A stretch of DNA of 64,000 nucleotides from an uncultured Bacteroidaceae bacterium (lineage in GTDB: Bacteria > Bacteroidota > Bacteroidia > Bacteroidales > GCA-2748055), in NCBI GenBank assembly GCA_964563105.1, contig CAZLXM010000007.1:253-64252 (forward strand), read 5' to 3'. The position numbers and the translations under genes were made by a program. Under the pieces are notes generated by a model. It saw only the letters and a program-made list of their open reading frames with translations. It was not told where the DNA came from and did no database searches. Shown here piece by piece: positions 1 through 29,079 of the stretch (positions are counted from its first letter, which is position 1; the number at the start of each line of letters is the position of its first letter).

Positions 1-1017
1 TGGAACAAAGGTCGTATCAATGGCAGGATTTTAACAGCTTTGAAAGCCCGGATTGCCCTGTTTGTTGCCAGTCAGGCATTTTCTCCCAGCACAGCAAAAT
101 GGGAAGCTGCTGCTGATGCAGCTGCTATTTTATTAAAAAATATAGGAGGTGTTTCAGGATTGGCTGCAGCAGGAAGGACATTCTATCTTACCAATAATAA
201 TGCTGATATAATCTGGAGAAGAGATGTACAGCAAATCAATTCCTGGGAAAGAGATAATTTCCCACCATCACTTTTTGGTAATGGAAGGACCAATCCAAGT
301 CAGAATCTGGTAGACGCATTTCCTATGATTAATGGTTATCCTGTCAATAATGCTGCCAGTGGATATAATCCTTCTGAACCATATAAAGACAGAGACCCCA
401 GATTAACACACTATATTGTATATAGTGGTAGTAAGATTGGTTCAGCAACCATAAATACAAATACCGAAGATCCTTCCAATGGCCTTAACAGTCTGATTAC
501 TTCCACCCGGACAGGTTATTATCTTAAAAAACTTTTAAGGGATAATGTGAACCTTGCACCGAATATTGACCTCAGACAGGAGCATTTCTATACTCTTCTG
601 AGATATACCGAATTATTCCTTAATTATGCCGAAGCTGCAAATGAAGCATGGGGACCTACCGGTGATCCCAGAGGAAACGGGTTTAATGCGAGCACTATTA
701 TTGCAGCAATAAGAGCGAGAGCCGGAATAACCCAGCCCGATGAATATCTTGGTACAGTTAACAGTCAGGCTGATATGCGTCAATTGATACGAAATGAAAG
801 ACGTATTGAATTGTGTTTTGAAGGATTCAGATTCTGGGACCTTCGTCGCTGGGACCTTCCCCTGGATGAGAAGGTTAAGGGTATGTCGATTACTAATAAT
901 GTATATACAGTAATTGATGTTGAAGAAAGGTCTTATAAGAGTTATATGAAATATGGCCCAATACCTTACTTTGAAATTTTGAAAAATAAGAGTCTGGTTC
1001 AAAATGAAGGCTGGTAG
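1..1017 (+). CDS. SusD/RagB-family nutrient-binding outer-membrane lipoprotein, C-terminal part (5' end lies outside the window)
   Basis: The frame is open from base 1, so the ORF-track start at 40 is only an in-frame TTG. The C-terminal signature ERRIELCFEGFRFWDLRRW is typical of SusD-like proteins. A second surface-lipoprotein gene follows it. Confidence 0.85.
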   Translation, partial: WNKGRINGRILTALKARIALFVASQAFSPSTAKWEAAADAAAILLKNIGGVSGLAAAGRTFYLTNNNADIIWRRDVQQINSWERDNFPPSLFGNGRTNPSQNLVDAFPMINGYPVNNAASGYNPSEPYKDRDPRLTHYIVYSGSKIGSATINTNTEDPSNGLNSLITSTRTGYYLKKLLRDNVNLAPNIDLRQEHFYTLLRYTELFLNYAEAANEAWGPTGDPRGNGFNASTIIAAIRARAGITQPDEYLGTVNSQADMRQLIRNERRIELCFEGFRFWDLRRWDLPLDEKVKGMSITNNVYTVIDVEERSYKSYMKYGPIPYFEILKNKSLVQNEGW

Positions 1018-1045
1018 AATTTTTTTAACAAAAAATATTTGTAAA

Positions 1046-2068
1046 ATGAAAAATATAAGCATTTTATTTATTTCAATATTTATGGTGGGATTGTTCTCTT
1101 GTCAGAATGAAAAATGGGAATTTGATGATTTTGACTATTCCACTGTATATTTCCCTTACCAGTATCCAGTCAGGACTTTGGTATTGGGCGATTATGAAAC
1201 AGGCGACAACAGCAATGACAATAACTTGAAATTTGTTGTTTCTGCTGCTATTGGCGGGATGTATGAGAATAAAGAAAACAGGACGGTAAATTATGAGCTT
1301 GCACCGGCACTTGCACAAAATGTCAGAACCACAACAAGTGATACTTTAACAATACTTCCCTCTAACTATTATACTTTGACTCCTCTTAATCAGATCATTA
1401 TTCCTAAGGGGAAATTTAGCGGAGGTGTTGAAGTACAATTAACCGAGGATTTTCTTAATGATCCCAGGGCTCATACAAGGCGTTATGTTTTACCATTGAA
1501 GATTACTTCAAGCTCTCTTGATAGTGTATTAAGCGGTAAACCCGGCACTGATAATCCTGATCCGAGGGTTGCTGCAGATTGGGATATTGTTCCAAAAAAT
1601 TTCACATTGTTTGGAATTAAATATATTAATGCCTATCATGGAAAGTATTTACACAGAGGGCAGTCTGTTATTAAGAATGCTGCAAATGAAACCTTGCAGA
1701 CCAATGTTTATCGTAAGCCATATGTTGAACAGGATGAAATATGGACATTGGCAACTGTTGGCAGGAATACTGTATCTGTTACCGGTGTTATACGGCAAAC
1801 TCCTGCAAGCCCGGGTAATTTTACCATGAAATTAACCTTTGATAATAATGGTAACTGTACAATAGTAAATGATCCTGCATCGGCTTTTGCTGTTACAGGA
1901 AGCGGAAAATTTCTGAAGAATGCTGATAGCTGGGGTAATAAGCCCAGAAATGCAATCTATATCAACTATCAGATTACCGTTGGTTCAGAAACTCATTTTG
2001 CTACAGACACCCTTGTTATAAGAGACAGGGATGTAAGATTTGAAGTGTTTACACCCGTTATTTATTAA
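1046..2068 (+). CDS. Surface glycan-binding-type lipoprotein in the SusE/F position (DUF1735-like)
   Basis: I chose the ATG at 1046, which gives MKNISILFISIFMVGLFSC with a lipobox Cys. The motif STVYFPYQYP followed by beta-rich sequence resembles DUF1735/BT_3987-type proteins. It lies directly downstream of the susD-like gene. Confidence 0.55.
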   Translation: MKNISILFISIFMVGLFSCQNEKWEFDDFDYSTVYFPYQYPVRTLVLGDYETGDNSNDNNLKFVVSAAIGGMYENKENRTVNYELAPALAQNVRTTTSDTLTILPSNYYTLTPLNQIIIPKGKFSGGVEVQLTEDFLNDPRAHTRRYVLPLKITSSSLDSVLSGKPGTDNPDPRVAADWDIVPKNFTLFGIKYINAYHGKYLHRGQSVIKNAANETLQTNVYRKPYVEQDEIWTLATVGRNTVSVTGVIRQTPASPGNFTMKLTFDNNGNCTIVNDPASAFAVTGSGKFLKNADSWGNKPRNAIYINYQITVGSETHFATDTLVIRDRDVRFEVFTPVIY

Positions 2069-2227: not shown

Positions 2228-3277
2228 ATGAAAAAAAGTGATAATTATTCAAGACGAAATTTTTTGAAAAAGTCGGGAGCAGGTGCCGGATTGATCGGAT
2301 TAGGCAATTTTTCAACTAATTTAAGCACTATTGGATCAGAAAAAGTTCATAATAACATTAGGCTTGAAAAAAGATCTCCAAGAGTGGTCAGGGTCCTGAC
2401 CGTATCAAAGACTGGTACCAGTTTCTCAGCAGTGCCTTTTGGAAGAAATGAAGTTGTTCAGGGGGTTATTGATCGTATCAGGTTGGCAAGTGTTTATAAA
2501 CCTGATATTATTAGTATTTTTGAGCTTTTTAATGGCGCTCCTCCATCCGAAGCTCAGGAAGTTCCCGGTCCACTCACTAATACTATGGCTGAACTGGCAA
2601 AAGAACTAAATAGTTATATTATTTGTCCTTTGCATACAAAAGCAGGTTCAAAAGTTTACAATTCTGCTGTTCTTATTGACAGAGACGGATCAATATCCGG
2701 GCAATATAATAAATGCCATCCTGTTACAGGTGAAATTGCCGGAGGGGTTAGCCCTGGAGTCATTCCTCCTCCTGTTTTTAAAACTGATTTTGGTACAATC
2801 GGTATCCAGATATGTTTTGATGTAAACTGGATTGACAGATGGAAAGAACTAAAAGATCAGGGTGCTGAGATTGTTTTCTGGCCTTCTGCCTATCCCGGTG
2901 GCAGAATGCTTCCTGCCTATGCCTGGATGTTCAAATACTACATTGTTACTTCAACATGGCGTGACCCTGCTACTATCTATGATATGACCGGTGATATTAT
3001 TGCCAGTAGCGGTTTATACGAACGCTGGGCTTTTGCTTCACTTAATATGGAAAAAGCTTTTCTTGAAACAGTTACTGGTTATACTAACAGACTTAATGAT
3101 GCAAAAAGAAAATATGGTTCCAAACTTATTATAAAATATTATCATGATGAAGATTGGACCACTATAGAAAGTAATTCGCCGGATCTGTATATTAAAGATA
3201 TATTGAAGGAATATGACCTTGTTCCCCATTGGGATTATATAAAAAATGAAGAAATAGAGCAGGCAAAATTCCGTTGA
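2228..3277 (+). CDS. Carbon-nitrogen hydrolase (nitrilase-superfamily) protein with a Tat-type signal
   Basis: N-terminal SRRNFLKKSGAGAG twin-arginine motif. Candidate Glu-Lys-Cys triad contexts are IFELF, YNKCHP and GIQICFDVNW, plus FWPSAYPGG. A paralogue lies at 19652-20683. Confidence 0.8.
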   Translation: MKKSDNYSRRNFLKKSGAGAGLIGLGNFSTNLSTIGSEKVHNNIRLEKRSPRVVRVLTVSKTGTSFSAVPFGRNEVVQGVIDRIRLASVYKPDIISIFELFNGAPPSEAQEVPGPLTNTMAELAKELNSYIICPLHTKAGSKVYNSAVLIDRDGSISGQYNKCHPVTGEIAGGVSPGVIPPPVFKTDFGTIGIQICFDVNWIDRWKELKDQGAEIVFWPSAYPGGRMLPAYAWMFKYYIVTSTWRDPATIYDMTGDIIASSGLYERWAFASLNMEKAFLETVTGYTNRLNDAKRKYGSKLIIKYYHDEDWTTIESNSPDLYIKDILKEYDLVPHWDYIKNEEIEQAKFR

Positions 3278-3406
3278 TATTTGTGAAATAATGTTCACTT
3301 AATTTTGTGCAGCTATTTTTCATATTTATTGTTATTCTGTTTTTAGATTGTTTATGTTTATTAATATTTGCTTTATCCTTTATTTTTCTAATTAAAATTT
3401 TTTACT

Positions 3407-4624
3407 ATGAAACATTTATTGATTTACATCTTATTAATTCCTTTATTGATGTTTCTTAGCTGTACTTCTACAGATAAATCTGAACCCTTTACTTTTAAAA
3501 TTCCTGCAGATTATCTTCTTGAGCCTGATGAAATTCCTGTATTCTGGAAAAACACTCTGGAAGAGGTGTCTGACATTCTGGAAAACACTGTTAAGCTTGG
3601 AGAAGTTAAGACAATAGGAACTTCCGCAGGTGGCAGACCAATTAAAGCAGTATTTTATGGCAGTCCACGTGAAGGTAAGGGCACTTCCACGTTCTCAGGT
3701 TCGCTTGGCTTTGGTGATGTCAGAGCCTATCGTGGTCCTGATCATGATAAAACTGTATATTTGGGTATGTCGGCCGTTCATGGGTTTGAGCTGGAAGGCA
3801 TTGTCGGGACTCTTAATCTGATTACTGTTCTTGAAACTGGTAAGGATCTGAGAGGAAAAGAATGGCCTGAAATTACTGAAGTTGCCGGGAAGGTTGATCG
3901 CCTTATAATAATACCCGTAATGAACCCTGACGGGCGCGCAAGAGTTCCTATAAAAATGGAGATACACAGGGGAAGTTCTAAAAATTATAAGATTAATGAA
4001 TTCCTAAATACCGGTGGATATGAAGATGGGTCCATGATAGGCTGGCCACAGGTTAAGGAGTTTATCCCGATGGATTTTACAAAATATGGATTTCCCGGAG
4101 GATATCCCAATGATGCAGGAGTAAATATCATGCATGATGATTTTTTTGGAGAGCGGCAACCTGAAACACAGGCACTGTTTGATCTTGTAGCAAAGGAAAA
4201 GCCCGATCTGATTTTTAATATGCATACAGGGGCACCCTTTCAAAACTACTTCATCCGTATGCACCGGCCTTTTGCCGAACCTGCTCTGACTAAAGCTTTT
4301 GAGGCTCTATATACCTGGGTTCATTCAGCACTTGCATTGATGGGCTTGCAAAGCACAAATGACCCGGCTATTGAAGCAGATCTTTCAGATGTTTACCAGG
4401 GGGCATATAATCTTGATGCAGCTCTCAATTTACACTGCGGAGCATTGAGTGTGGTTATCGAATCACCAAATCATGGTTTTTCCGGTACTAACAGGGCTGG
4501 AGAAACAGTTTTACAAACTCCTGAAATGATCCTTGATGCTCAATTGGCATGCCATCAGGAAGGAATGAAATTCCTTGCAGAAACGGGAGGCAGGTCAAAA
4601 TGGACTCCCGCAAGAAAAAGATAA
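3407..4624 (+). CDS. M14 (zinc carboxypeptidase-fold) family lipoprotein
   Basis: Lipobox LMFLSC. HxxE zinc motif in SAVHGFELEG, IIIPVMNPDGRA motif, and a later NMHTGAP His. Confidence 0.6.
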   Translation: MKHLLIYILLIPLLMFLSCTSTDKSEPFTFKIPADYLLEPDEIPVFWKNTLEEVSDILENTVKLGEVKTIGTSAGGRPIKAVFYGSPREGKGTSTFSGSLGFGDVRAYRGPDHDKTVYLGMSAVHGFELEGIVGTLNLITVLETGKDLRGKEWPEITEVAGKVDRLIIIPVMNPDGRARVPIKMEIHRGSSKNYKINEFLNTGGYEDGSMIGWPQVKEFIPMDFTKYGFPGGYPNDAGVNIMHDDFFGERQPETQALFDLVAKEKPDLIFNMHTGAPFQNYFIRMHRPFAEPALTKAFEALYTWVHSALALMGLQSTNDPAIEADLSDVYQGAYNLDAALNLHCGALSVVIESPNHGFSGTNRAGETVLQTPEMILDAQLACHQEGMKFLAETGGRSKWTPARKR

Positions 4625-4662
4625 AATAAGCTTCTTTATAAATAAAATTAATTTAAATCAAA

Positions 4663-6396
4663 TTGAAAAATTTTCAAAAAATCCTTCTTTTAGTGATTTT
4701 TGCCGGTTTGAGGCTTATTTCCCATGCCGATGAAATAAGTTATGAAGAAAACAGAATTATTTTTGTAGATAATTCTTTATCAGCTAGTTGCGAGAAATAT
4801 GACCTGAATACCAGGACTTGTGGAAAGGGTGATAATTTAGCATATACTGATCTTGAAACTGCCTGTTTGAATGCTATCCCCGGAGATCTTATTTTGATCA
4901 GAGAAGGAATATACAATGGCAGTAATAATAGAATTGTCCCCTTGAATTCCGGAATAAAGGAGAAAGAGATATATTTTAAAAATTATAATGGAGAAAAGGT
5001 TGTTATTACCTCTGTTGGAAGTGATTATGCTATATTTATTGAAGGGAAAGAATATATCACTATTGAAGGGCTTACTTTTACAGAAGTTTATGCTTTTGGG
5101 AGAATCATTGACTCAAACCATATTATATTAAGAAGGAATAATTTTCTTAATATGAATTCCAATCAATGGTTAGCTTTACATTTTGTTAACAGTAATTATA
5201 ACAAGGTTTTGGATAATACCCTTTATAGCGTTGGTATGGGTAGCGGAAAGGACAATCTTCAGTTTGTTTATTCAAATCATAATTTAATAGAAGGAAACCG
5301 CATCGAAAGCATAGGTCACGTATTATGGGCAATAAAATGCGGCTGTTTTAATGTGGTAAGAAATAATTATTTCTATAATCATAATCAGAAAATAGCTGAG
5401 GTTTTTGATTGCAATGATGGTACTACATATACTGTCAGACATACGCATGTGAATGCAACTAAATTTAATCTGATTGACAACAATATTTTTGCCTATACCG
5501 ATAAAGACAGAAAAAGAGAGAGAGACGGGCGTCCGGGCGGTCCATATAACGGAATACAATATGCCGGCCAGGATGGCATTATAAGAAGAAATGTTTTTTA
5601 CAATAATTTGGGTGGAGGACTCGGCTTAACGACTTATTTTGATGAGGCTGAATATAATACCGGAAACAGGGTTTATAATAATCTCTTTTATAAAAACGGG
5701 CATGGAGCAATAGATATCTCAGGTTCAGCAAGATATAGTTTTTCAGATAATATTTTGAAAAATAATATTCTTTATAAAAATTATTTTGCTAACTGGGATA
5801 ATGTGTATGATATTTTAGGTTATTCTAAGATTGATGGAAAACCTTTACAAATTCTGACATCAAGAAAAACGGCTGATTATCTTTTTGATAATAACAATAT
5901 TTTTAATAATGTTAAAGAAGAAAATCACCTTATTGCCAGTCTTGGTGAATATAAAACCCAGGATCCTGATGACAGGTCACTTCAATATTGGGAGAAGAAT
6001 TATCCTGATATATTTAAAAATAATTTACAGGAGGATCCTTTATTTATTGATACTGAAAAAAATGATTTCAGGCTACGGGCTGAAAGTCCTATGATAGATA
6101 AAGGTACGTTTTTAACGAAAACAACTTCATCAGGATCCGGCACCAGGGTTCTTGTAGAGGATGTGCGTTATTTTTATGATGGCTATGATATTGAAGGTGA
6201 AACAGGTGATTTGATACAATTTGAAAAGGGGGGCAGGGCCAGGATTGTTTCCATAGATTATGAAGCAAATATTTTGATTTTAGATAGGAACCTGATTTGG
6301 GACAAAGCGCAGGGAATAAGTCTTTCTTATTTTGGAAATGCTCCTGACCTGGGCCCTTATGAATTTACATCAGATCCGTCAGGTACGGGAGAATAA
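4663..6396 (+). CDS. Secreted right-handed parallel beta-helix repeat protein (pectin-lyase fold)
   Basis: TTG start and signal-like N-terminus. It has many repeats of the NN(I/L)(F/Y)xNN type (NNYFYNHN, NNIFAY, RNVFYNNLGGG, NNLFYKNGHG, NNILYKN). Confidence 0.65.
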   Translation: MKNFQKILLLVIFAGLRLISHADEISYEENRIIFVDNSLSASCEKYDLNTRTCGKGDNLAYTDLETACLNAIPGDLILIREGIYNGSNNRIVPLNSGIKEKEIYFKNYNGEKVVITSVGSDYAIFIEGKEYITIEGLTFTEVYAFGRIIDSNHIILRRNNFLNMNSNQWLALHFVNSNYNKVLDNTLYSVGMGSGKDNLQFVYSNHNLIEGNRIESIGHVLWAIKCGCFNVVRNNYFYNHNQKIAEVFDCNDGTTYTVRHTHVNATKFNLIDNNIFAYTDKDRKRERDGRPGGPYNGIQYAGQDGIIRRNVFYNNLGGGLGLTTYFDEAEYNTGNRVYNNLFYKNGHGAIDISGSARYSFSDNILKNNILYKNYFANWDNVYDILGYSKIDGKPLQILTSRKTADYLFDNNNIFNNVKEENHLIASLGEYKTQDPDDRSLQYWEKNYPDIFKNNLQEDPLFIDTEKNDFRLRAESPMIDKGTFLTKTTSSGSGTRVLVEDVRYFYDGYDIEGETGDLIQFEKGGRARIVSIDYEANILILDRNLIWDKAQGISLSYFGNAPDLGPYEFTSDPSGTGE

Positions 6397-9798: not shown

Positions 9799-10235
9799 AT
9801 TTTTATTATTATATATATTGAATACAATATTTTCTAAAAATCTTTTAAAAGATAAATTTACAAAAAAAACTGCTAACTAATCTTAAAATAAGCCATATAT
9901 TATTGTTGCAGGCAGTCAGTTATTTTACTGTAATTCTATTTCTAAAACTCAATATGGCCCTAAAGGGTTGCTTTTTTCCTTTCCTGATAAAACAAGTGTT
10001 ATAATTCTTCGTATTGTATTTGGCCTAGAGAGACAATTATATAGTTTTCAGGATCAGGACATAAGTTTGGCGATTTTAAACTATGCATTGGTTAATGAAT
10101 TATATTACCGGGATACCGCCCATTTTTATGAAGACAGAAAAACAGGTGTGGTAAGTGAATAAAGAACAGGTTATAAGAGATTGAAGAGAGGATATTGTTC
10201 TTTCAACATAACTGAATGTCAGGAAAGGAGATTAA

Positions 10236-10365
10236 TTAGTGGTAGCCACGGGTTTTTCAAGAATAACATGCATGCCTGTTTTTAAGGCCCTAACTGCAAC
10301 ATCATGATGAAAGTTATCTGATAAACAAATATCTACAATAGAGATAATTATATGAATAAAATGTT
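10236..10365 (-). pseudogene. Short relic of a Gfo/Idh/MocA oxidoreductase gene
   Basis: The minus-strand translation reads ...IVDICLSDNFHHDVAVRALKTGMHVILEKPVATTN*. This matches the conserved xxH...A..AL.xGxHVxxEKP segment of the family. It is bounded by stops about 43 codons apart and has no start or Rossmann region. Confidence 0.5.
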
Positions 10366-10430
10366 AGCATGACAAAAAGGTTTTGCTTCAAATTAAGTCA
10401 ATTATCCTGTTAATTAAAATCGTAAATTGA

Positions 10431-12182
10431 CTAATTAATTATATTCCCTTTTGAGTAAACAACTTTGCCCCCGACAATTGTTGCTTCTGATTCGATTTCC
10501 TTTATATTATCTACCGGGCAGGTAAGAATGTCGTCAGTAAGAATAACCATATCAGCTAGTTTTCCCCCTTCTATAGAGCCTTTTAGCAATTCTTCTGAAG
10601 ATGCAAATGCATTATTAATTGTATACATTTTCAGGGCTTCTTCCCTCGTGATTGCCTGCTGCGGTTCAATTACAGTTCCTCTTTCTGTTTTTCTTGTAAT
10701 TGCTGACCACATACCAAGAAAAGGGTTATAAGGATTAATAGAAGCATTTGCATCCCATTTTACCATGTGGTCTGAACCGCCATTAACCATAACCCCTGCA
10801 TCAAATAATGAACGATATGGATGGAAAGTGCGGATCTTTTCTTCTCCCAATATCTGAAGCATTGCGTCAGCATCTTTATAGAACCATGCAGGTTGTGAGT
10901 TTGCATATACTTCTAACTCTTTCATTTTCTTTATAGCGTCCTGTGTATAAAAATTACCATGAATTATTGAAAATCGTTTATTTTTTATTGATTTTGATTT
11001 ATTTATTTCTTCATAAACATCAAGCAGGAGATCAACACCGCCACCACCGGTTGAATGGGCCGTAAAACTCCAGTTAAGTTCATTTGCAGCTGAAACTATA
11101 GAAAGAAGCTGTTCCCGGGAATAATTCAAAACTCCTCTGTATGAAGGATCTTCAATTCCAAAAATAGCTTGTGCTTTATCACCCCAAGGTTCACGCATAT
11201 ATGCAGTTCCGGTTAAAATTCCACCATCCAGAATAATTTTTAATGGTCCTGCACGAAGCCATTCGTCACCATCACCTGTTTTATATCCGAGATTTTTTAA
11301 CCTGGCGCTCACATTTTCTTTCGTAATACTGTCTCCTCCCATCCTTAACATTATATTCTGGTAAATGCGGACTGTAAGCTTCTTATTACGGATCAAATCG
11401 TTATACATTTGAGTAGTTTCAGGATCATCTGAACCCTGGCACAAACTGGTAATTCCATATCGGTTATATCTTTCCAACATTGCTTCAAGGGCACTCAATT
11501 TTTCCTGATAAGTTAATACACGGGGGGTGGGACGTTTCAGTAAGCGAAATGCCGAAGCCCTGATAAAACCAGTTAACATTCCTGTATTTTCATCCCGTAA
11601 AAGTCCCGGATGATTTGTTGCTTTGGAAATTCCGGAAGCTTTCATTGCTGCCGAATTAATCATGCCTCCATAAGTCCCGTCAAGAAAAACCGGATGAAAT
11701 GGTGCAACTTCATCCATTTCAGTAAGGGTAGGTGATCTTAATTCTAAAAGCCGCGTTGCAAAAAACTTTGGAAAAATTATCCATTGATCTTTCTCTTTAA
11801 TTGTTGTTTGTTCTTTTATCCAATCAAGAAGTTCTGCTATAGAATGCACGTCAGGTATTTCTTCATCAATTTCACTTAAAAAAGCTAATTCAGGATGTAA
11901 ATGTGATTCATTAAGACCAGGAATTACGGTCTTTCCTTTGAGGTCAATAATTTTAGTGTTTTTCCCGGAAAACTTTTTAATCCTGGAAGAAGATCCTACA
12001 TCAATTATCATATCCTGAGTAATAGCCACTGCTTCAACGATCCTGAAATTATCATCTACAGTTACTATTTTACCGTTTAATAATATCATATCTGCAGGAT
12101 GGGTCACTTTACATGCTGAAAGGATAAGTATAAAAAAAGGAAGAAAAAAGATTGATTTCATTAAATTATTAACTGATTTCAT
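10431..12182 (-). CDS. Amidohydrolase-family (Amidohydro_3/YtcJ-like) metal-dependent hydrolase lipoprotein
   Basis: Lipobox LILSAC. HxH metal motif in GLNESHLHPE, later FTAHSTGGGG and GGSDH motifs, and a length of ~580 aa typical of the YtcJ-like group. Confidence 0.8.
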   Translation of the reverse strand: MKSVNNLMKSIFFLPFFILILSACKVTHPADMILLNGKIVTVDDNFRIVEAVAITQDMIIDVGSSSRIKKFSGKNTKIIDLKGKTVIPGLNESHLHPELAFLSEIDEEIPDVHSIAELLDWIKEQTTIKEKDQWIIFPKFFATRLLELRSPTLTEMDEVAPFHPVFLDGTYGGMINSAAMKASGISKATNHPGLLRDENTGMLTGFIRASAFRLLKRPTPRVLTYQEKLSALEAMLERYNRYGITSLCQGSDDPETTQMYNDLIRNKKLTVRIYQNIMLRMGGDSITKENVSARLKNLGYKTGDGDEWLRAGPLKIILDGGILTGTAYMREPWGDKAQAIFGIEDPSYRGVLNYSREQLLSIVSAANELNWSFTAHSTGGGGVDLLLDVYEEINKSKSIKNKRFSIIHGNFYTQDAIKKMKELEVYANSQPAWFYKDADAMLQILGEEKIRTFHPYRSLFDAGVMVNGGSDHMVKWDANASINPYNPFLGMWSAITRKTERGTVIEPQQAITREEALKMYTINNAFASSEELLKGSIEGGKLADMVILTDDILTCPVDNIKEIESEATIVGGKVVYSKGNIIN

Positions 12183-12357
12183 TATGAAAATAATATTATT
12201 TGCTTAAAAAAGTTTAATTGTGTTAAAGATAAAAAAAGAGTTTATTTTCGCCTAATTTGTAAATGGAAAAAGCAAAAGAAAAAATGAATTGACCTGTTTT
12301 CTTAAAAATACCTTATATATTTTCGTGATATTTTTAAAAGCAGTTTAGTTAAATAAA

Positions 12358-14499
12358 TTAGTCGACATAATTATTAAAATTTTCCCATTTTACATTCCAT
12401 TTTCCATTTTTTGGGAATTGACCTGAGATGCACATTTTTGCAATTGCAGTTAATAATCCCCCATTACCCGGCAAATAAACAGCAAGGTTAGGCCTTTGAT
12501 AATTGTGCCCGTTTAGGAGGTATTTATTTTTGTTGGTTTGCATTAGAAGAAAATCAATAGCTTTTTCTTCCTGGTGTAAAGATGCTGCTGACAATGCCAG
12601 CATTGGAAAATCCCATCCCCATGCTGATGGCCAGTTCCATTTAATATTTATTGAATCAAGTGAATTGCGAAGAATGTCTTTATTTATCTTATCTGTAGCA
12701 GGCAGGGCCCCTAAAATACCTGACACAACAGGATGGTCACTCAAATAACGAGTGTTTTCGTAAGAATCTTCAGTGTCTTCAGAACAGAGATAAACTCCGT
12801 TCTTTTCTGGTAATGCCGAAAGCCTGGAAACAACGTCTGCCCAGAGGGGATCAGGCTCAAGTTTTAATCTGCTTCGCCATTCCAGGGCTGTTTTAAGCGC
12901 CCAATACCAATATGCAAGTTCAAATACAGGATTTATAGTAGTTTCCGGTTTTAAACTTTCCTGTGCCGGAATTAAAACCGGGCCTAAAATATAACGATTA
13001 TCCACACTGTCAAAAAAAGCATAGGAAGCCATAAAATTTGCGGTTTCAAATACCAGTTCATTATACTTATTTAAAATTTCTTCCTTATTCTCTGCATTTT
13101 TATAAAGTAATTCGGAAAAGAAAATAAAATGTGGCTGTTGCCATATCAGGTAAGTTCCTACAGTACTGGGGCTTTCTCTGCCGTCAGGACCGGTCATTTT
13201 GGGCCATCTTACACCCGAATATCCCTGATGTTTCGCGGTTTCCATCGCTTTATCAAAGATGCTGTTATAATAGTCCATTTGCTTTTTAAGTATGTTCTCC
13301 CGTTTCCATAAAGCAAAATGAACTGCATGCCACCAATGCATTTCCAGATGGAACTTACCATACCAGCTATTATAAGTCAGGCCGGTTTCGGCAGGAGGAA
13401 GTGAACCACTGCATTGGATTTTGGTAAGATATTGTGATAATATAACTCTTCTTTCTAATTCAAATGCCCTTGGATCAGTACATTGTGAAAAGTCCGCTGC
13501 AGCTCCGCTTGTCCAGAATTCTTTCCAGGCCCTTCTGCTTTCACGCCTGCTTTCACGAAAAGTATATAAAGTACTATCAATTAGCGACTTACTAAAGCAA
13601 AAAGAACTCTCAAAAGATGAATCTTTCAATTCGGGGATAATATAATATAAATGTTTCGAAACTTCTGTTATACGGGCATTTCTATGGACAGCCATAAAAT
13701 AATATCTGTCTTTAGTTTGTTCACGTTCAATAATTGTATGATCAGTTGACCCGGAGATAATTTTAGTAGAATGTTTTTCGGGTTTATTAAAATCATAAGC
13801 TGAAGGTAAAGGTGTTCCTAATGGAAAATGAATTTTAATTTTCAATTGCCCTGTAGAAATTAGCCTGGAAGTTATTTTCACAGAAACTAAATCTGATTTT
13901 GGGTGACAAACAGTATGTACCTCAACTGCTGAGCCCTCCACATAAAATTTACTTTTTATCATGCCTGTCCACAAATCAAGCTTTTGAACGGGATTAGTGA
14001 TATCCTGAATATTTATCTCTGATCCGTCTTTCTTTACAATTTGTAGGCCTATCATCCCCAGGTGGATGCGATGAGGATTGGTGCGTAACCATTCGGAAGC
14101 CCGGACTTTTCTTGAATCTGCATGGTCTCTGAACTGATGAACATAATTTATGGTCCTGCCGTGAACTTCATAACTTTTGTAAACATCTGTCAATTGAAAA
14201 TTTTCAGTATTTTCATTTCTATGCCAGCCCCAGTTCGACATAGTACCTAAAGGGATACCTTTTTCATAAATTTCCGGAAAGGTCTGTAAACCGGTAATAT
14301 CAACCGTAAATGCAAAATCGCCATTACCTAATGACAAGGAACTAAGGCTGTCAATAATGGAGTGTTCAATATTATGTCTGGTAACCAGATCAAAACGGTT
14401 AATAGAAGAAGAGAAATTACATGCTGTCAGATAACAACATACAAATATTATTAAAGAGAAAAAAGTAGTTTTAAATCTATTATGATGATTTCCATTCAT
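12358..14499 (-). CDS. Large lipoprotein, putative (alpha/alpha)6-type glycoside hydrolase of unassigned family
   Basis: Lipobox YLTAC. N-terminal LGNGDFAFTVDITGLQTF resembles the N-domains of GH65/GH95-like enzymes. The aromatic-rich helical C-terminal half contains EMHWWHAVHF and YLIWQQPHFIFF. I could not assign a family. Confidence 0.4.
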   Translation of the reverse strand: MNGNHHNRFKTTFFSLIIFVCCYLTACNFSSSINRFDLVTRHNIEHSIIDSLSSLSLGNGDFAFTVDITGLQTFPEIYEKGIPLGTMSNWGWHRNENTENFQLTDVYKSYEVHGRTINYVHQFRDHADSRKVRASEWLRTNPHRIHLGMIGLQIVKKDGSEINIQDITNPVQKLDLWTGMIKSKFYVEGSAVEVHTVCHPKSDLVSVKITSRLISTGQLKIKIHFPLGTPLPSAYDFNKPEKHSTKIISGSTDHTIIEREQTKDRYYFMAVHRNARITEVSKHLYYIIPELKDSSFESSFCFSKSLIDSTLYTFRESRRESRRAWKEFWTSGAAADFSQCTDPRAFELERRVILSQYLTKIQCSGSLPPAETGLTYNSWYGKFHLEMHWWHAVHFALWKRENILKKQMDYYNSIFDKAMETAKHQGYSGVRWPKMTGPDGRESPSTVGTYLIWQQPHFIFFSELLYKNAENKEEILNKYNELVFETANFMASYAFFDSVDNRYILGPVLIPAQESLKPETTINPVFELAYWYWALKTALEWRSRLKLEPDPLWADVVSRLSALPEKNGVYLCSEDTEDSYENTRYLSDHPVVSGILGALPATDKINKDILRNSLDSINIKWNWPSAWGWDFPMLALSAASLHQEEKAIDFLLMQTNKNKYLLNGHNYQRPNLAVYLPGNGGLLTAIAKMCISGQFPKNGKWNVKWENFNNYVD

Positions 14500-14881
14500 T
14501 TTTAGGATACTTAGAGTTTAAATATATTCAGGTTTAATTTTTCGGTCTTATTTATAACTTCATTATTTAATTAATTACAAAAATAATGAATTTCACAAAG
14601 TTGTTATGAAATTATAAGTGTGTGAATATATTGGATTTTTGATAATTTTGTTTAAGGTCAAAATAAGTTCTATTAAATTGGATTAAAGAAACAGATTAAA
14701 AATTATATTTGATCCTGATCTTTATGAAAAGGCTGATCTGATCCTTAATATTTAATTATGTTACCATCAGGAGGTATTGATTTTTTTCCTGAAGCATGAA
14801 CTATTTAAAACATGTCTCATGCAGGAGCAAAAAAAATGAAAATATTCTGTGATTTATAACAATATCCTTTAACTTAAAAAA

Positions 14882-19651: not shown

Positions 19652-20683
19652 ATGACATATCAATCGAGAAGGAAATTTATGAAAAATGCATCATTTGGGG
19701 CGACTGCATTTGGACTATCTGGTTTTACACCTGCAGCCGGTAATTATGATAAAAAGGAAATTAAACGGATGCCCCGGGAAGTATGGATCGCAACTATTAC
19801 CCAGCATAATATCGGTGGTAATAATATCCGGGAATCCATCCAATCTGCATTAAGGCAGATGGAAAATGCCCTACCATTTAAACCTGATATCTATTGCCTT
19901 CCTGAAGCATTTCATGTTGCAGCAGTGAAGGGAGGGAGGCCGTCTCCTGAAATTTCTGCTGAAAATGGATCCGGAAATATTATAAACCCTTTTCAGGCAT
20001 TCGCAAAAAAGAATAACTGTTATGTGATATGTTCTGTTTATACTGTTGAGAGTGGGAAATATTATAATGCAGCTGTTATTATTGACCGCCAGGGTAAATA
20101 TATGGGTGAATATAGGAAAGTGAGGTTAACAGTGGAAGAGTTAAAATATTTAACTCCCGGGCCCCGGGATATTCCTGTGTTTCAAACTGATTTTGGAATA
20201 ATAGGTGTACAAATATGTTTTGATATTGAATGGCCCGAGGGATGGTCCCGGCTGGGTGATAAAGGAGCTGAAATGGTATTTTGGCCCTCTGCCTTTGCAG
20301 GTGGCAAGATGGTGAACACATATGCCTGGCAAAATCACTACTGTGTAATTTCAAGTACAAGGAAAAATACCAGTAAAATTTGTGATATTACCGGAGAAGA
20401 AATTGCAGTAAGCGGAAACTATAGTCCCTGGGGAGTATGTGCTCCGGTAAATCTGGAAAAGGCATTTCTTCATAGCTGGCCGTATAATAAACATTTTCCT
20501 GAAATAGAGCGCAAATACGGCAGGAAAGTTAGGATATATACTCTGCATGAAGAGGAATTTTCAATAATAGAAAGTTTATCGATGGATATAAAGGTCGCAG
20601 ATATTATGAAAGAATTTGGTTTAAAAACGCATCGTGAACATAAAAAAATTGCTGAATTAGAACAAAATAAATTTTATTCCTGA
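19652..20683 (+). CDS. Carbon-nitrogen hydrolase family protein with a Tat-type signal (paralogue of 2228-3277)
   Basis: SRRKFMKNASFGATAFG twin-arginine motif. Triad contexts are CLPEAFH, YRKVRL and GVQICFDIEW, plus FWPSAFAGG. It starts 63 nt after heparinase II-like copy 2. Confidence 0.8.
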   Translation: MTYQSRRKFMKNASFGATAFGLSGFTPAAGNYDKKEIKRMPREVWIATITQHNIGGNNIRESIQSALRQMENALPFKPDIYCLPEAFHVAAVKGGRPSPEISAENGSGNIINPFQAFAKKNNCYVICSVYTVESGKYYNAAVIIDRQGKYMGEYRKVRLTVEELKYLTPGPRDIPVFQTDFGIIGVQICFDIEWPEGWSRLGDKGAEMVFWPSAFAGGKMVNTYAWQNHYCVISSTRKNTSKICDITGEEIAVSGNYSPWGVCAPVNLEKAFLHSWPYNKHFPEIERKYGRKVRIYTLHEEEFSIIESLSMDIKVADIMKEFGLKTHREHKKIAELEQNKFYS

Positions 20684-20737: not shown

Positions 20738-23236
20738 ATGTTTTCAAAAATAAACTTTATGAGAAATTTACTTTTTATTCCTTCCAAAAAAGATCATTTT
20801 TTCTTTAATAAAAATAAACATTCAGGCAGAAATGTATTCTCGACTTATTTAATGATTTCCTTATTTTTTCTTATAATCACTTCTTCATGTAACTCTCCTG
20901 CAGAAGATAAACAAATACTGCCTGAAGCTGAACCTAAGCCTTATACTGTTCGTTATGCACCTGCTGACGGAAGTGTTTCACAGATTGACCCACCGGCTTT
21001 TATCTGGTTACCTGTTGATAAAAAAGAAGAATATATACTCCAATATAGCACTAAAGCTGATTTTAAACCTGAGCAGACTAAAACAATAAACTGTAGCCGG
21101 ACTATTTTTGTCCCCCATGAAACTATGGGTTCCGGAAAATGGTACTGGCGTTATGGAATTAAAGATGACCAGACAGGTAAATTGATTTTTAGCAAAGTCC
21201 GTAAATTTACTATTGTTAAGAATGCCGTGGAAGTGCCTTTTCCGGATGTGAAAAAAGTAATTGATGATCTTAAAGGTATCCGCCCGCGTAATTTAGTCAG
21301 AAATGAAGATATTCATCATTTCAGGGAGCTTGGGGCAGGCCCTTTAAAAGGATATCTTGATAATCTGAAAAGAAATGGAAATAAATTTTTAGGCGAGCCA
21401 TTACATCCTGAACCGGATTTTTTATCTGAAGACAGGGAGCAGAAAATAGTTGATTTTGTTAAGATCATGAGGTCCACCAGAGTATTTAACAGTGGAATAT
21501 CAGAGTGTGCCACTCTTTATTTATTAACAGGTGAAGAGAAATATGGGATGGAAGCGAGGCGCCGGATGTTACATCTTGCTTCATGGGACCCTGAGGGAAG
21601 CACAAGCCTTTTTCATAATGATGAACCCGGTCATGAAATAATTAGTGTTATTGCAAGGGCTTATGACTGGATATATCCGCTTCTTGACCAGAATGATAAA
21701 GATAAAATATGTAAAATGCTTGCTGTAAGGATTCCGCAGCTTTATAAAGTATTAATTAATAAACCTTTCGAAATACATCCTTACGAGTCACATGCAATGG
21801 GTTATTTTATAGGGGATTTACTGGAGGCTTGTATTTGCATGGCAGATGAAATTCCGGTTGAGGAAATGTTGGAATATGTTTTACTTCAACTCTGGTCTCC
21901 CTACTTTCCTCCTTATGGCGGAGATGATGGTGGTTGGTGCGAAGGGCCTTCATACTGGCAATGGAGTACAGCAGTTTTTTTACGTATTTTTAGTCTTGTT
22001 GAACAAAATTGCGGTGTGGATCTGACCAATAAACCATGGCTGAAAAATACTGCATTTTTTAAACTATACTGTAATCCTCCATATTCAAAAATGTCACCCT
22101 TTGGTGATGGACAGTCTGGGGTTCCAGGTTTATCAGGAATAATGTTTAAACTTGGGGTAACATACAATAATCCTTATGCTTTGTGGTATGATAAACAGCT
22201 AAATGCTAAACCACAAGGAGTTGAACGTTTTAAATATTTCATCGAAACAGAAGATACAGGCAAATCACCCGAGGATCTCCCACAGGCACATTGCTTTCAT
22301 AATATTGGCCTGGCTTGTATGCACAGCGATTTGGCAAATGGTGAAAATAATGTCCATTTTATGCTTCGAAGCAGTCCATTTGGGGCAATAAGCCATGCAT
22401 ATGCTGATCAAAATGCTTTTGTCCTCTTTGGATATGGCGAACCGCTCGCTATTGCTTCAGGTTACTATCCTTATTATGACAGTCCCCATCACAGAAGTTG
22501 GACATGGCATACAAAGGCATCAAATAGTATTTTGGTAAATGGTGAAGGACAGAAAATACGTAACTGGGATTCACGCGGGAAAATAACTGATTTTAAAACA
22601 ACGGATTATGCCCATTATGCTATTGGAGACGCCACAGAGGCTTATTTTGGAAGTGTTAAACGTTTTTACAGGCATGCACTTTTTCTTAGACCGACTATTC
22701 CTGAAGATGAACCTGTAATTATACTTTATGATGATGTTGCAAGTCAGGATCCTTCTATCTATGACTGGTTGCTTCATTCTATTGAAAAAATGCAGGCAGA
22801 TGAACAAAATAAATCGGTAACCATAAGGAGGGGAGCTGCCGGACTGTTTGTTCAATTCCTTACACCGGAACAATTAAAATTTTCCCAAACAGATGAGTTT
22901 ACTGTCCCCCCTGAATCTGATAATATGCCTAATCAATGGCATTTAAATGCGCAAACAACTGTTGCTGATACAGTTGCAAAATTTATAACAGTATTAATGC
23001 CTTTCCGGCAAGGTCTGGAACAAAATCTTCCGCGAATAAGGTTTATTGATAAAGCCGGCTGGGTTATCATTGAGTTAACAAGCTCACATACAACACAGGT
23101 GGTAGCATTCCGGACAGGGGCTAAACCGGGGACGTCCATTAAAATTGGAGATTTTAAAACCAAAGCTGATGTTGCGGCTACTGCATATGATTTGCAGGGT
23201 AACGTAAGGGCCTCAATACAAATTGAAAATAAATAA
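20738..23236 (+). CDS. DUF4962 / heparinase II/III-family polysaccharide-lyase-like protein
   Basis: The N-terminal PPAFIWLPV...YILQYSTKADF...KWYWRYG pattern resembles DUF4962. A helical toroid-like middle is followed by a C-terminal ISHAYADQNAF...ASNSILVNGEGQ region like the heparinase II/III C-domain. The start is uncertain: M39 at 20852 gives the lipobox-like MISLFFLIITSSC. Confidence 0.7.
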   Translation: MFSKINFMRNLLFIPSKKDHFFFNKNKHSGRNVFSTYLMISLFFLIITSSCNSPAEDKQILPEAEPKPYTVRYAPADGSVSQIDPPAFIWLPVDKKEEYILQYSTKADFKPEQTKTINCSRTIFVPHETMGSGKWYWRYGIKDDQTGKLIFSKVRKFTIVKNAVEVPFPDVKKVIDDLKGIRPRNLVRNEDIHHFRELGAGPLKGYLDNLKRNGNKFLGEPLHPEPDFLSEDREQKIVDFVKIMRSTRVFNSGISECATLYLLTGEEKYGMEARRRMLHLASWDPEGSTSLFHNDEPGHEIISVIARAYDWIYPLLDQNDKDKICKMLAVRIPQLYKVLINKPFEIHPYESHAMGYFIGDLLEACICMADEIPVEEMLEYVLLQLWSPYFPPYGGDDGGWCEGPSYWQWSTAVFLRIFSLVEQNCGVDLTNKPWLKNTAFFKLYCNPPYSKMSPFGDGQSGVPGLSGIMFKLGVTYNNPYALWYDKQLNAKPQGVERFKYFIETEDTGKSPEDLPQAHCFHNIGLACMHSDLANGENNVHFMLRSSPFGAISHAYADQNAFVLFGYGEPLAIASGYYPYYDSPHHRSWTWHTKASNSILVNGEGQKIRNWDSRGKITDFKTTDYAHYAIGDATEAYFGSVKRFYRHALFLRPTIPEDEPVIILYDDVASQDPSIYDWLLHSIEKMQADEQNKSVTIRRGAAGLFVQFLTPEQLKFSQTDEFTVPPESDNMPNQWHLNAQTTVADTVAKFITVLMPFRQGLEQNLPRIRFIDKAGWVIIELTSSHTTQVVAFRTGAKPGTSIKIGDFKTKADVAATAYDLQGNVRASIQIENK

Positions 23237-27795: not shown

Positions 27796-29079
27796 ATGAA
27801 TTACTTTTTAAGAAAGATAAGTTATAATATTATTTTAATTTTATTTCTGATTACTAATGAATTTGATGTTTTTAACAATGATTTGACAACATGCAATTTA
27901 AATCAAGATGGGTTATTTGCAGCAAGAATTACCGATTCAATTAAATCACCTGTTAAATATATAAATTCTTCTTTTGAAAATGCTTCCCCTGTTTATTGGG
28001 AATATAATCCTGACGGATCAGTTCAAATAACCTGTTTATATGATCATGAAAGGGAATCACCTAACAGGGCTTCCAATCATTGGCATTTTCAGGTACAGGC
28101 CTCTAAAGGTGCTAATTTAGTTCTATATTTAAATTTTTTTGATCAAGTATGGAATGGAAAGGCTTCTGCAAACTTTTCAAGGATTAAAAATTTTTATATT
28201 TCTATTGATGGTAAACATTGGTCTCTTTTGCCGGTAGAGGCTGTAGATAATAATATTTTAAAATTAAGTATTCTGATGCCTGCTGACAGAGTTTTTCTTA
28301 CACAAGTTGAGCCATACAGGATAAGTGATTTAGAAAACTTAAAAAGAGAAATTAAAAATAATCCTTTAACGGAAATTATTACAATTGGGAAAACTGTAGA
28401 AGGCAGAGAACTTGAGATTATAAGAGTTGGATATCCAGAAGCTCCTTACCGGGTTTTTATCCGGGCGCGTTCCCACCCCTGGGAAGCAGGAGGTAACTGG
28501 GTGGTACAAGGCCTTATTCGAAGTTTGCTTGAGAAAACAGAGGAGATAAATTCTTATTTAAAAAAATATTGTTTATATGTTTTACCCATGGCTAATAAAG
28601 ACGGAGTTTATAGAGGTCTTACCCGCTTTAACAGCATGGGATGTGATCTTAACAGAAACTTGGATTTACCTGCTGATCCAATTTTAGCACCTGAAAATTA
28701 TGCTATGGAATTATGGTTAAAAACTATGATTGATCAAGGGAAAAAGCCTCATATTGCGATTGATTTGCATAATGACATGGGTGGGAAACTGCTTGTAAGT
28801 TACCCAAATGTCAATCTGGATACCTATCTGACTAATATGCGGCGATTTGAAGATCTTTTGTATAAACATACCTGGTTCCGGGAAGGTAGTTCCGGCAGAA
28901 ATTCCCGTATTCCCGGAAGTTTTGGTGAAAGTATGATTGAACGCTTTGGAATTGATGGCTGCGTACTCGAATTAAACCGTTTATGGATTGAGGGTTTAAA
29001 AAAGGAGCCTTTCGGAAAGGATTGGGAGTTATTTGGCAGGCAATTGCGTGATGTTTTTTTCGAGTATTTCGAAAAATAA
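27796..29079 (+). CDS. M14-family metallocarboxypeptidase-fold protein with an N-terminal beta-sandwich domain (cytosolic-carboxypeptidase-like subfamily)
   Basis: HxxE in RARSHPWEAGGNW, then VLPMANKDGV and IDLHND. The N-terminal ~170 aa domain precedes GKTVEGRELEIIRVG. Confidence 0.75.
   Translation: MNYFLRKISYNIILILFLITNEFDVFNNDLTTCNLNQDGLFAARITDSIKSPVKYINSSFENASPVYWEYNPDGSVQITCLYDHERESPNRASNHWHFQVQASKGANLVLYLNFFDQVWNGKASANFSRIKNFYISIDGKHWSLLPVEAVDNNILKLSILMPADRVFLTQVEPYRISDLENLKREIKNNPLTEIITIGKTVEGRELEIIRVGYPEAPYRVFIRARSHPWEAGGNWVVQGLIRSLLEKTEEINSYLKKYCLYVLPMANKDGVYRGLTRFNSMGCDLNRNLDLPADPILAPENYAMELWLKTMIDQGKKPHIAIDLHNDMGGKLLVSYPNVNLDTYLTNMRRFEDLLYKHTWFREGSSGRNSRIPGSFGESMIERFGIDGCVLELNRLWIEGLKKEPFGKDWELFGRQLRDVFFEYFEK

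Follow-up and report, generated by a model that had tools for sequence, protein, structure and literature searches.

The 64,000-nt stretch of DNA analysed here in its entirety (positions 253 to 64,252 of contig CAZLXM010000007.1, forward strand, GenBank assembly GCA_964563105.1; hereafter referred to as the window) derives from an uncultured Bacteroidaceae bacterium and contains two genes for carbon-nitrogen (CN) hydrolases, designated copy 1 (P0001) and copy 2 (P0002). An earlier note, based on the sequence alone, had described both as nitrilase-superfamily enzymes exported through the twin-arginine translocation (Tat) pathway and embedded in polysaccharide-lyase operons. Both open reading frames (ORFs) were recovered where that note had placed them, with lengths of 349 and 343 amino acids (aa), as were the gene order and the 63-nt gap it had reported; copy 1 lies 159 nt after a SusD/DUF5627 gene pair, and copy 2 lies 63 nt after the second of two heparinase II genes and 54 nt before a DUF4962 gene. 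The two genes and their key codons are as follows.

2228..3277, plus strand: CN hydrolase copy 1 (P0001), 349 aa, matching PF00795 and TIGR01409
2252-2257, 2522-2524, 2711-2713, 2732-2734 and 2813-2815, plus strand: codons of copy 1 for the arginine pair (RR), E99, K162, E169 and C196, respectively
19652..20683, plus strand: CN hydrolase copy 2 (P0002), 343 aa, matching PF00795
19667-19672, 19904-19906, 20117-20119, 20138-20140 and 20216-20218, plus strand: codons of copy 2 for the arginine pair (RR), E85, K156, E163 and C189, respectively

The short motifs originally quoted for the two proteins are all present in their translations: SRRNF (residues 8-12), IFELF (E99), YNKCH (K162) and ICFDVNW (C196) in copy 1, and SRRKF (residues 5-9), CLPEAF (E85), YRKVR (K156) and ICFDIEW (C189) in copy 2. 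The claim that these motifs preserve an intact Glu-Lys-Cys triad was borne out by alignment to solved structures, which places the three residues at canonical positions and reveals a second Glu (E169 in copy 1, E163 in copy 2) also in place. In phmmer searches, E85, K156 and C189 of copy 2 coincide with the catalytic triad (Glu, Lys, Cys) of both Drosophila beta-alanine synthase (2vhh) and Pyrococcus PH0642 (1j31), and K162, E169 and C196 of copy 1 with the Lys, second Glu and Cys of PH0642. Two homologue alignments, of 17 and 88 sequences, show no variation at the Glu or the Cys and conservation of 90% or more at the Lys, the second Glu and the arginine pair; one homologue (P0227) apparently carries Ser at the Lys position.

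An AlphaFold2 model of copy 1, built from 88 sequences, has a mean pLDDT (predicted local distance difference test) of 88 and a pTM (predicted template-modelling score) of 0.83. The model is confident from approximately residue 50 onward and disordered over residues 23-45, matching the expectation for a signal peptide and linker. A Foldseek search with this model returned 212 PDB matches at E<=0.001, the top 50 of which all belong to the nitrilase superfamily. The best match is the N-carbamoylputrescine amidohydrolase 5h8i (E 2e-21, TM-scores 0.58/0.72), and other top matches, at 16-23% identity, include mouse Nit2, the PH0642 amidase, D-carbamoylases and formamidases; the model and its matches together predict a four-layer alpha-beta-beta-alpha nitrilase fold. 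We also considered whether the C-terminal 90 aa might constitute an added domain. This was ruled out, as the Foldseek alignments span 280-300 columns of a mature protein of about 300 residues and relatives that have no signal peptide align to the end of the family profile; the tail belongs to the fold and is missed by the Pfam model. Judging from sequence and model, both copies are apparently soluble nitrilase-fold enzymes with a complete Glu-Lys-Glu-Cys set, and hence putative active amidases.

The twin-arginine leaders reported for the two proteins were detected in copy 1 by model (TIGR01409, 23.7 against a cut-off of 16.7) and in copy 2 by eye, without a hidden Markov model (HMM) match; visual inspection of the copy 2 leader revealed SRRKFMK followed by the mildly hydrophobic stretch ASFGATAFGLSGF. 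Neither leader contains a Cys, and no membrane segments were noticed beyond the signal peptides in either translation, read by eye with no prediction run. An RR-x-hydrophobic motif occurs within the first 35 residues of 201 of 231 full-length homologues (87%) and is thus not a product of chance; homologues without it mostly have visibly mis-called starts. A small subclade bears Sec or lipoprotein-type signals in place of the Tat motif, so export is the conserved trait and Tat its usual route. The genome itself encodes TatC (PF00902, 234.6 bits, contig C61). We infer that Tat is used since the enzyme folds or oligomerises before export, and the coexistence of Tat and Sec variants offers a clean case for studying why an enzyme that carries no cofactor should take the Tat route.

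To place the two proteins among the known nitrilase branches, we performed HMM searches, as the earlier note had suggested. Both match PF00795 (CN_hydrolase) well above its cut-off of 23.2 bits (70.1 bits for copy 1 and 97.6 bits for copy 2), and no curated equivalog model was reached. The best NCBIfam match, TIGR03381 (AguB), scores 51.7 and 65.7 bits against a cut-off of 410, with partial model coverage. Scores for the aliphatic amidase and formamidase models NF009802 and NF009803 range from 16.5 to 31.4 bits (cut-offs 427 and 406), those for the Nit1-type deaminated glutathione amidase models NF033621 and NF043013 from 21 to 41 bits (cut-offs 355 and 500), and the Lnt model TIGR00546 yields 17.8 and 32.7 bits (cut-off 132.9). 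No Nit2/omega-amidase model appears among the NCBIfam matches of either copy. With all scores far below cut-off, membership in the AguB, DCase/beta-ureidopropionase, AmiE/AmiF, Nit1 and Lnt families was rejected, and the PF00795 matches together with the absence of any equivalog define the two proteins as secure superfamily members that lie outside every characterised branch. The genome has a separate, cytoplasmic aguB gene (contig C46, 4196-5079, minus strand) adjoining an agmatine deiminase gene. This aguB is split into two adjacent ORFs (127 and 164 aa), with two in-frame TGA codons reported, and may represent a pseudogene, an assembly error or a recoding event.

The two copies share 38% identity from end to end (E 2e-77). 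A tree of 94 family members places copy 1 in an 8-row clade (support 100) and, far from it, copy 2 in a clade of 17 rows (support 97) that includes PL8-adjacent and sulfatase-adjacent members. A recent duplication was ruled out by this low identity and by the tree, in which each copy has closer orthologues elsewhere within a well-supported clade of its own; the copies are old paralogues, not the outcome of a local duplication, and probably differ in substrate.

Relatives of the two proteins are abundant. Word-indexed searches recovered 1175 and 954 relatives, whose source names are limited to "carbon-nitrogen hydrolase family protein", "predicted amidohydrolase" and an automatic "beta-ureidopropionase". 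Look-ups of the exact L018 and L026 proteins returned no record. A profile search of 1.84 billion cluster representatives identified 819 matches with E-values of 1e-30 or lower, and 6565 when the threshold was relaxed to 1e-10. The relatives include many proteins of 300-320 aa that start at profile position 45; these have no leader but retain the C-terminal tail, and form what their sequences indicate is a cytoplasmic sister group. Family members are mostly from Bacteroidota, including Chitinophagaceae, Cytophagales, Saprospiraceae and Prolixibacteraceae, and Planctomycetota, with further carriers in Latescibacterota, KSB1, Ignavibacteriota, Acidobacteriota, Gemmatimonadota and Omnitrophota. 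The distribution is patchy at close range: of the 61 relatives of this genome, only three have a member (E<=1e-40), and none of the three is in the same genus. Taken at the level of sequence, the two copies sit in anciently separated clades of one widespread, uncharacterised and putatively exported family.

Several members occur as fusions or in multiple copies. A ThuA-CN hydrolase fusion keeps the C-terminal tail of the family, a CBM_4_9 fusion occurs in a more distant relative of the short type, and a DUF1080-CN hydrolase fusion was detected as a weak match. Tandem genes for exported CN hydrolases occur in several genomes, and there are also polypeptides of 549-689 aa with two CN_hydrolase domains (L042, L065, L101 on contig C70 of G009, and P0256/P0307/P0333). 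Outside the window, the genome encodes two further exported CN hydrolases. One (contig C26, 1493-2497; 334 aa) has a Sec-type signal with E, K and C present, and lies between neutral-ceramidase-like and beta-helix genes (C26, 1-4089), an arrangement that echoes the CN hydrolase-M14-beta-helix order at window positions 2228-6396. The other (contig C1; 447 aa) is extended by about 200 aa at its N-terminus, where relatives of this type bear CBM_4_9 (P0390); the gene order at this site (C1, 32760-41624) is ceramidase-like, double DUF1080, CN hydrolase, SSF transporter, UxaC (uronate isomerase) and UxuA (mannonate dehydratase).

Within the window, the two copies occupy separate operons, in and around which lie the following genes.

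1-1017, plus strand: SusD-family gene (Pfam), upstream of copy 1 and cut by the window start
1004-2068, plus strand: DUF5627/BT_3987-like surface lipoprotein gene (Pfam), upstream of copy 1
3407..4624, plus strand: M14a, a divergent M14 metallopeptidase (PF00246, E 5.8e-9), 129 nt after copy 1
4663..6396, plus strand: right-handed beta-helix protein (PF13229), closing the first operon
10431..12182, minus strand: Amidohydro_3 metal amidohydrolase (PF07969, E 2e-84; no NCBIfam equivalog), between the two operons
14882-17167 and 17309-19588, plus strand: tandem HepB genes (heparinase II, PL21-type; NF045571, 965 and 926 bits, cut-off 600)
20738..23236, plus strand: lyase-like gene with DUF4962 and Hepar_II_III_C (Pfam, E 6e-50), 54 nt after copy 2
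27796..29079, plus strand: M14b, a second M14 metallopeptidase (PF00246, E 2e-17), about 7 kb downstream of copy 2

The HepB pair, which matches HepII_C, Hepar_II_III_C and DUF4962 in Pfam, is directly upstream of copy 2, and the lyase-like gene that follows copy 2 scores just 69 bits on the HepB model. M14a returned no PDB or NCBIfam match. M14b retains the HxxE, DLNRN and DLH motifs, the second of which we take to be the carboxylate-binding site of M14 enzymes. The Amidohydro_3 protein represents another amide hydrolase in the region, and the window also holds Tat-type Gfo/Idh/MocA and GH109-type oxidoreductases together with an AP_endonuc_2 (xylose-isomerase-like TIM barrel) protein. A terminator scan detected no hairpin above shuffled expectation in the short gaps around either copy, which is weakly consistent with co-transcription. 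A 713-aa lipoprotein gene (12358-14499, minus strand), divergent from the HepB operon, has a weak match to the GH65 central domain (E 4e-4) and no NCBIfam match; its product may be a candidate for the unsaturated-uronate hydrolase step.

We then performed a comparative analysis of gene neighbourhoods, in which ORFs were called and searched with seed HMMs at 91 CN hydrolase loci (80 species genomes, 10 metagenome or assembly contigs, and four sites in the genome under study), with genome-wide copy numbers in 40 genomes serving as background for PIG-L, GH123 and PL8. The conserved linkage to PL21/DUF4962 genes that the earlier note had proposed to test did not hold: the copy 2 locus of the window is the only one of the 91 with a heparinase II-like neighbour, ruling out a role in heparinase II/PL21 degradation systems as a trait of the family. 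A single obligatory partner gene was likewise ruled out, as 134 Pfam families occur among the 108 unassigned flanking proteins, none more than five times. With neighbours this scattered and heparinase II linkage seen in the window alone, no gene emerges as a fixed partner, and linkage to PL21/DUF4962 does not characterise the family.

A broader link to glycan degradation did emerge at the family level. Glycan-type neighbours lie within four genes of the CN hydrolase in 32 of 43 Bacteroidota loci, and three enzyme families are enriched over the 40-genome background: PIG-L de-N-acetylases (present at 11 loci where 0.74 would be expected, P 4e-10, and spread over about six independent lineages), GH123 (4 loci, 0.24 expected) and PL8 lyases (3-4 loci, ~0.12 expected); the CBM_4_9 fusion points the same way. 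In Bacteroidota, the family occurs mostly in loci that degrade hexosamine- and uronate-rich glycans, and its assignment as an accessory of periplasmic glycan catabolism, especially of hexosamine- and uronic-acid-rich polymers of glycosaminoglycan (GAG)-like or bacterial-envelope type, is secure. Gfo/Idh/MocA genes are the most frequent neighbours (25 of 91 loci, 12 of them within three genes), and other neighbours include AP_endonuc_2 (9 loci), Tat-signal aldo-keto reductases (7), DUF1080 (6) and sulfatases with an SGSH_C domain (adjacent in 5). The Gfo/Idh/MocA, sulfatase and SusCD counts carry little weight here, because these genes are very abundant in the phyla concerned and the background comparison covered PIG-L, GH123 and PL8.

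Lyase linkage recurs solely as PL8, mainly within the clade of copy 2. In L016 and L018, two PL8 genes lie directly upstream of the CN hydrolase gene on the same strand, mirroring the HepB-HepB-CN hydrolase arrangement of the window, and L017 has one PL8 gene in that position; all three belong to the copy 2 clade. In one relative of the same taxonomic family, two CN hydrolase genes in tandem are convergent with two PL8 genes, and the orthologue of copy 1 is directly followed by a DUF4861/GH88-like gene. An M14 gene directly follows the CN hydrolase gene in three loci (the window, L067 and L092), involving two M14 types and different CN hydrolase clades. The M14 protein of L067 (Tannerellaceae) is 61% identical to M14a, in a locus ordered SusD, CN hydrolase, M14, Tat aldo-keto reductase, DUF2264, glyoxalase and GH88, with GH31 also present, and that of L092 (Saprospiraceae) is 52% identical to M14b, its gene overlapping the CN hydrolase gene by 4 nt. 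The L092 pair is followed by a gene for a CE15 glucuronoyl-esterase-like protein (9983-14764 for the trio), and each of the three enzymes could free a blocked carboxyl group. Beta-helix genes also recur, 1-4 genes away from CN hydrolases on contig C26 of this genome, in L106 and on contig C93 of G009.

Further neighbours were identified at other loci. A neighbour with no Pfam match on record ("unk369") proved to be NagX- and HGSNAT-like (NF046061, 304 bits over the full length; PDB 8vkj, E 2e-16), that is, a transmembrane protein of the glucosamine N-acetyltransferase type. Its gene lies directly after the CN hydrolase gene in L103 (11056-12129) and L104 (11046-12155) and is also present in L020, L021, L057, L077 and L093; the combination of NagX-like, GH123 and CN hydrolase genes occurs in four lineages and three CN hydrolase clades. 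Neutral-ceramidase-like amidases are encoded in six loci, including beside both distant paralogues of this genome, and in L020 and L021 the NagX-like gene overlaps the ceramidase-like gene, which suggests a swapping of N-acyl groups on hexosamines. A YdjC gene adjoins the CN hydrolase gene in one relative. In one Dyadobacter locus, the order is ECF (extracytoplasmic function)/FecR, SusC, SusD, CN hydrolase, a DgcN-like gene and an L-Ala-D/L-Glu-epimerase-like gene. A polysaccharide utilization locus (PUL) shared by six Chitinophagaceae loci (L024, L026, L027, L030, L031 and L034) combines, in order, an M14 gene, SusD, SusC, FecR and an ECF sigma factor with a CN hydrolase gene, a gene for a 915-aa protein and PIG-L; the 915-aa protein has no Pfam match and a weak GH30-like match.

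Most nitrilase-superfamily amidases release ammonia from a primary carboxamide (R-CONH2) or a carbamoyl group. Because of this usual ammonia-releasing chemistry, together with the lyase, GH88, CE15, M14 and epimerase neighbours, we favour, at a probability of roughly 40%, a terminal carboxamide as the substrate, either a uronamide or an isoglutamine-type peptide amide, from which ammonia would be released. The proteins would fold and probably oligomerise in the cytoplasm, as nitrilase-fold enzymes do, and would then be moved in folded form to the periplasm by the Tat pathway. There, the Cys would attack the amide carbon of a fragment derived from a glycan or from the cell envelope, ammonia would leave, and the thioester would be hydrolysed to a free carboxylate. 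The amide in question could be a uronamide on the substrates or products of the lyases, or one of the isoglutamine type borne by attached amino acids or peptides, and the unmasked carboxylate could be used by polysaccharide lyases, GH88-type hydrolases, M14 carboxypeptidases or D-Glu/dipeptide epimerase systems. The UxaC and UxuA genes beside the distant paralogue on contig C1 support such a carboxylate-centred role.

A number of observations weigh against carboxamide deamidation. The neighbours are very heterogeneous, heparinase II linkage is confined to the window, even the closest relatives from the same taxonomic family have none of the neighbouring genes seen there, and glycan-type neighbours occur in only 6 of 26 Planctomycetota loci, a phylum in which genes are less clustered. 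Known glycans seldom contain uronamides, which sits poorly with so common a family, and the nearest solved relatives, decarbamoylases and omega-amidases at ~20% identity, say little about specificity. The strongest statistical partners, PIG-L and the NagX/HGSNAT-like protein with GH123, point instead to the amine side of hexosamines. The enzymes might accordingly remove a non-acetyl N-substituent (N-carbamoyl, N-formyl, N-glycolyl or another N-acyl group) from glucosamine or galactosamine, after which the NagX/HGSNAT-like enzyme would re-acetylate the amine and enable the substrate-assisted hexosaminidases of GH123 and GH20 to act; alternatively, they might complement the PIG-L/YdjC de-N-acetylases. 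The enrichment of PIG-L and GH123, the recurrence of the NagX-GH123 combination across lineages and clades, the neutral-ceramidase-like amidases, the adjacent YdjC gene and SGSH_C sulfatases, and the fact that decarbamoylases liberate amines are all in keeping with this scheme, and the locus context as such fits carboxamides and hexosamine N-substituents about equally. We nevertheless consider N-substituent removal, the main rival, rather unlikely. Secondary amides that pair a small acyl group with a bulky amine leaving group are atypical substrates for the nitrilase fold, we know of no N-carbamoyl hexosamines among glycan components, and, were the group an acetyl, pairing with an N-acetyltransferase would be futile. 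Moreover, PIG-L loci and NagX-like loci do not overlap, so no single N-substituent scheme fits both, and the associations may merely reflect hexosamine-rich substrates.

The absence of a fixed partner amid extremely diverse flanks, the lack of recognisable glycan neighbours in most Planctomycetota loci, the patchy, accessory distribution among relatives of this genome and the existence of cytoplasmic sister proteins could also be accounted for by a general periplasmic amidase that scavenges nitrogen or carbon from small free amides without any particular connection to the glycan, its operon position being incidental or co-regulated. Such a scavenger would not be expected from the enrichment of PL8, PIG-L and GH123 over genome background, from the placement of the genes within lyase operons of several lineages, on the same strand and with short gaps, from the translational coupling to an M14 gene or from the CBM_4_9, ThuA and DUF1080-like fusions, and we regard it as improbable. 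Still less probable is a partnership with a periplasmic oxidative (3-keto) sugar pathway, in which a Gfo/Idh/MocA or ThuA-type system would oxidise a 2-acetamido sugar, the glycosidic bond would be eliminated, and the CN hydrolase would finally yield acetate and ammonia from the enamide so formed or from acetamide that had been released. The frequency of Gfo/Idh/MocA, AP_endonuc_2, DUF1080 and Tat-signal aldo-keto reductase genes, the ThuA fusion with the family tail, the weak DUF1080 fusion and the Tat-type Gfo, GH109 and AP_endonuc_2 genes of the window are consistent with it, but these phyla are very rich in Gfo and related families, the chemistry is deduced with no precedent known to us, and the aliphatic amidase and formamidase models match more weakly than AguB. 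That the proteins are not hydrolases at all in vivo, acting as Lnt-like acyl-transferases or as catalytically silent binding subunits, is very improbable: the fold can transfer acyl groups periplasmically, as Lnt illustrates, copies 1 and 2 do match the Lnt model weakly (33 bits at most), and P0227 apparently has its Ser, but family members keep the tetrad with little or no variation, inspection of the two translations by eye showed no membrane segment beyond the signal peptides, and the Lnt scores remain far under the cut-off.

The family bears on how PULs are described, since existing catalogues consist almost entirely of glycoside hydrolases, lyases, esterases and sulfatases and barely represent amide-cleaving steps, while this large and conserved family of exported amidases, which comprises hundreds of 50%-identity clusters, recurs in such loci of soil, sediment and marine degraders. 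Once the substrate is identified, models of glycan and cell-wall turnover would gain a type of reaction, a new carbohydrate-active enzyme family would probably be defined, and the presence of amidases in some lyase operons would be explained. More tentatively, and with some doubt, the family might constitute the first nitrilase-fold class of carbohydrate-active enzymes, periplasmic "de-blocking" amidases that act on amidated carboxyls or N-blocked hexosamines. Their targets might, equally tentatively, be envelope-type or GAG-like glycans, such as teichuronic-acid-, heparosan- and chondroitin-like polymers and the amidated peptides attached to them. If so, de-blocking would render these glycans processable by lyases, hexosaminidases and M14 carboxypeptidases, and would account for a step so far missing from microbial necromass turnover.

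The earlier note knew of no periplasmic, glycan-linked nitrilase-superfamily member with a defined role, and none was found in the literature searched for such a member; a proteomics paper on a GH123-rich degrader does not mention any amidase. Its statement that these enzymes are normally cytoplasmic is broadly right, with exceptions. The nitrilase-fold domain of Lnt works at the periplasmic face of the inner membrane, and the vanins and biotinidase are secreted. Lnt differs from the window copies, which are soluble, in being an integral membrane acyl-transferase with another export route. The vanin/pantetheinase and biotinidase enzymes are, like the window copies, extracytoplasmic amidases of the superfamily and match them weakly in the PDB (4cyf and 7slv, E ~1e-6), but they consist of two domains, occur in eukaryotes, act on secondary amides of cofactors, and have neither a Tat signal nor a link to glycan loci.

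The reaction proposed here has a precedent in WbmE of Bordetella bronchiseptica, a periplasmic enzyme that turns uronamide residues of a polysaccharide into uronic acids (PMC2615507); it was the only such case that the literature searched on uronamides yielded. WbmE differs from the window copies in having a papain-like transglutaminase-superfamily fold, with no sequence relationship to them, and in being biosynthetic, remodelling the O antigen of its own cell, whereas the role proposed for the window copies is catabolic. The AguB/CPA enzymes (Medicago MtCPA, 5h8i) share the alpha-beta-beta-alpha fold and the Glu-Lys-Glu-Cys tetrad with the window copies, but are only ~22% identical to them, are cytoplasmic without a signal peptide, and belong to polyamine synthesis. 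The PH0642/Nit2-type omega-amidases (1j31, 6ypa and 2w1v) are the top PDB sequence matches (E 4e-13 to 2e-13), match the window copies residue for residue at the Lys, the second Glu and the Cys, and hydrolyse terminal carboxamides of dicarboxylate mono-amides, the chemistry favoured here for the window copies; they differ in being cytoplasmic proteins of ~260-280 aa with ~20% identity to the latter. Fold and chemistry are thus known from these systems, and what is new is an exported, glycan-locus-associated branch without an assigned function.

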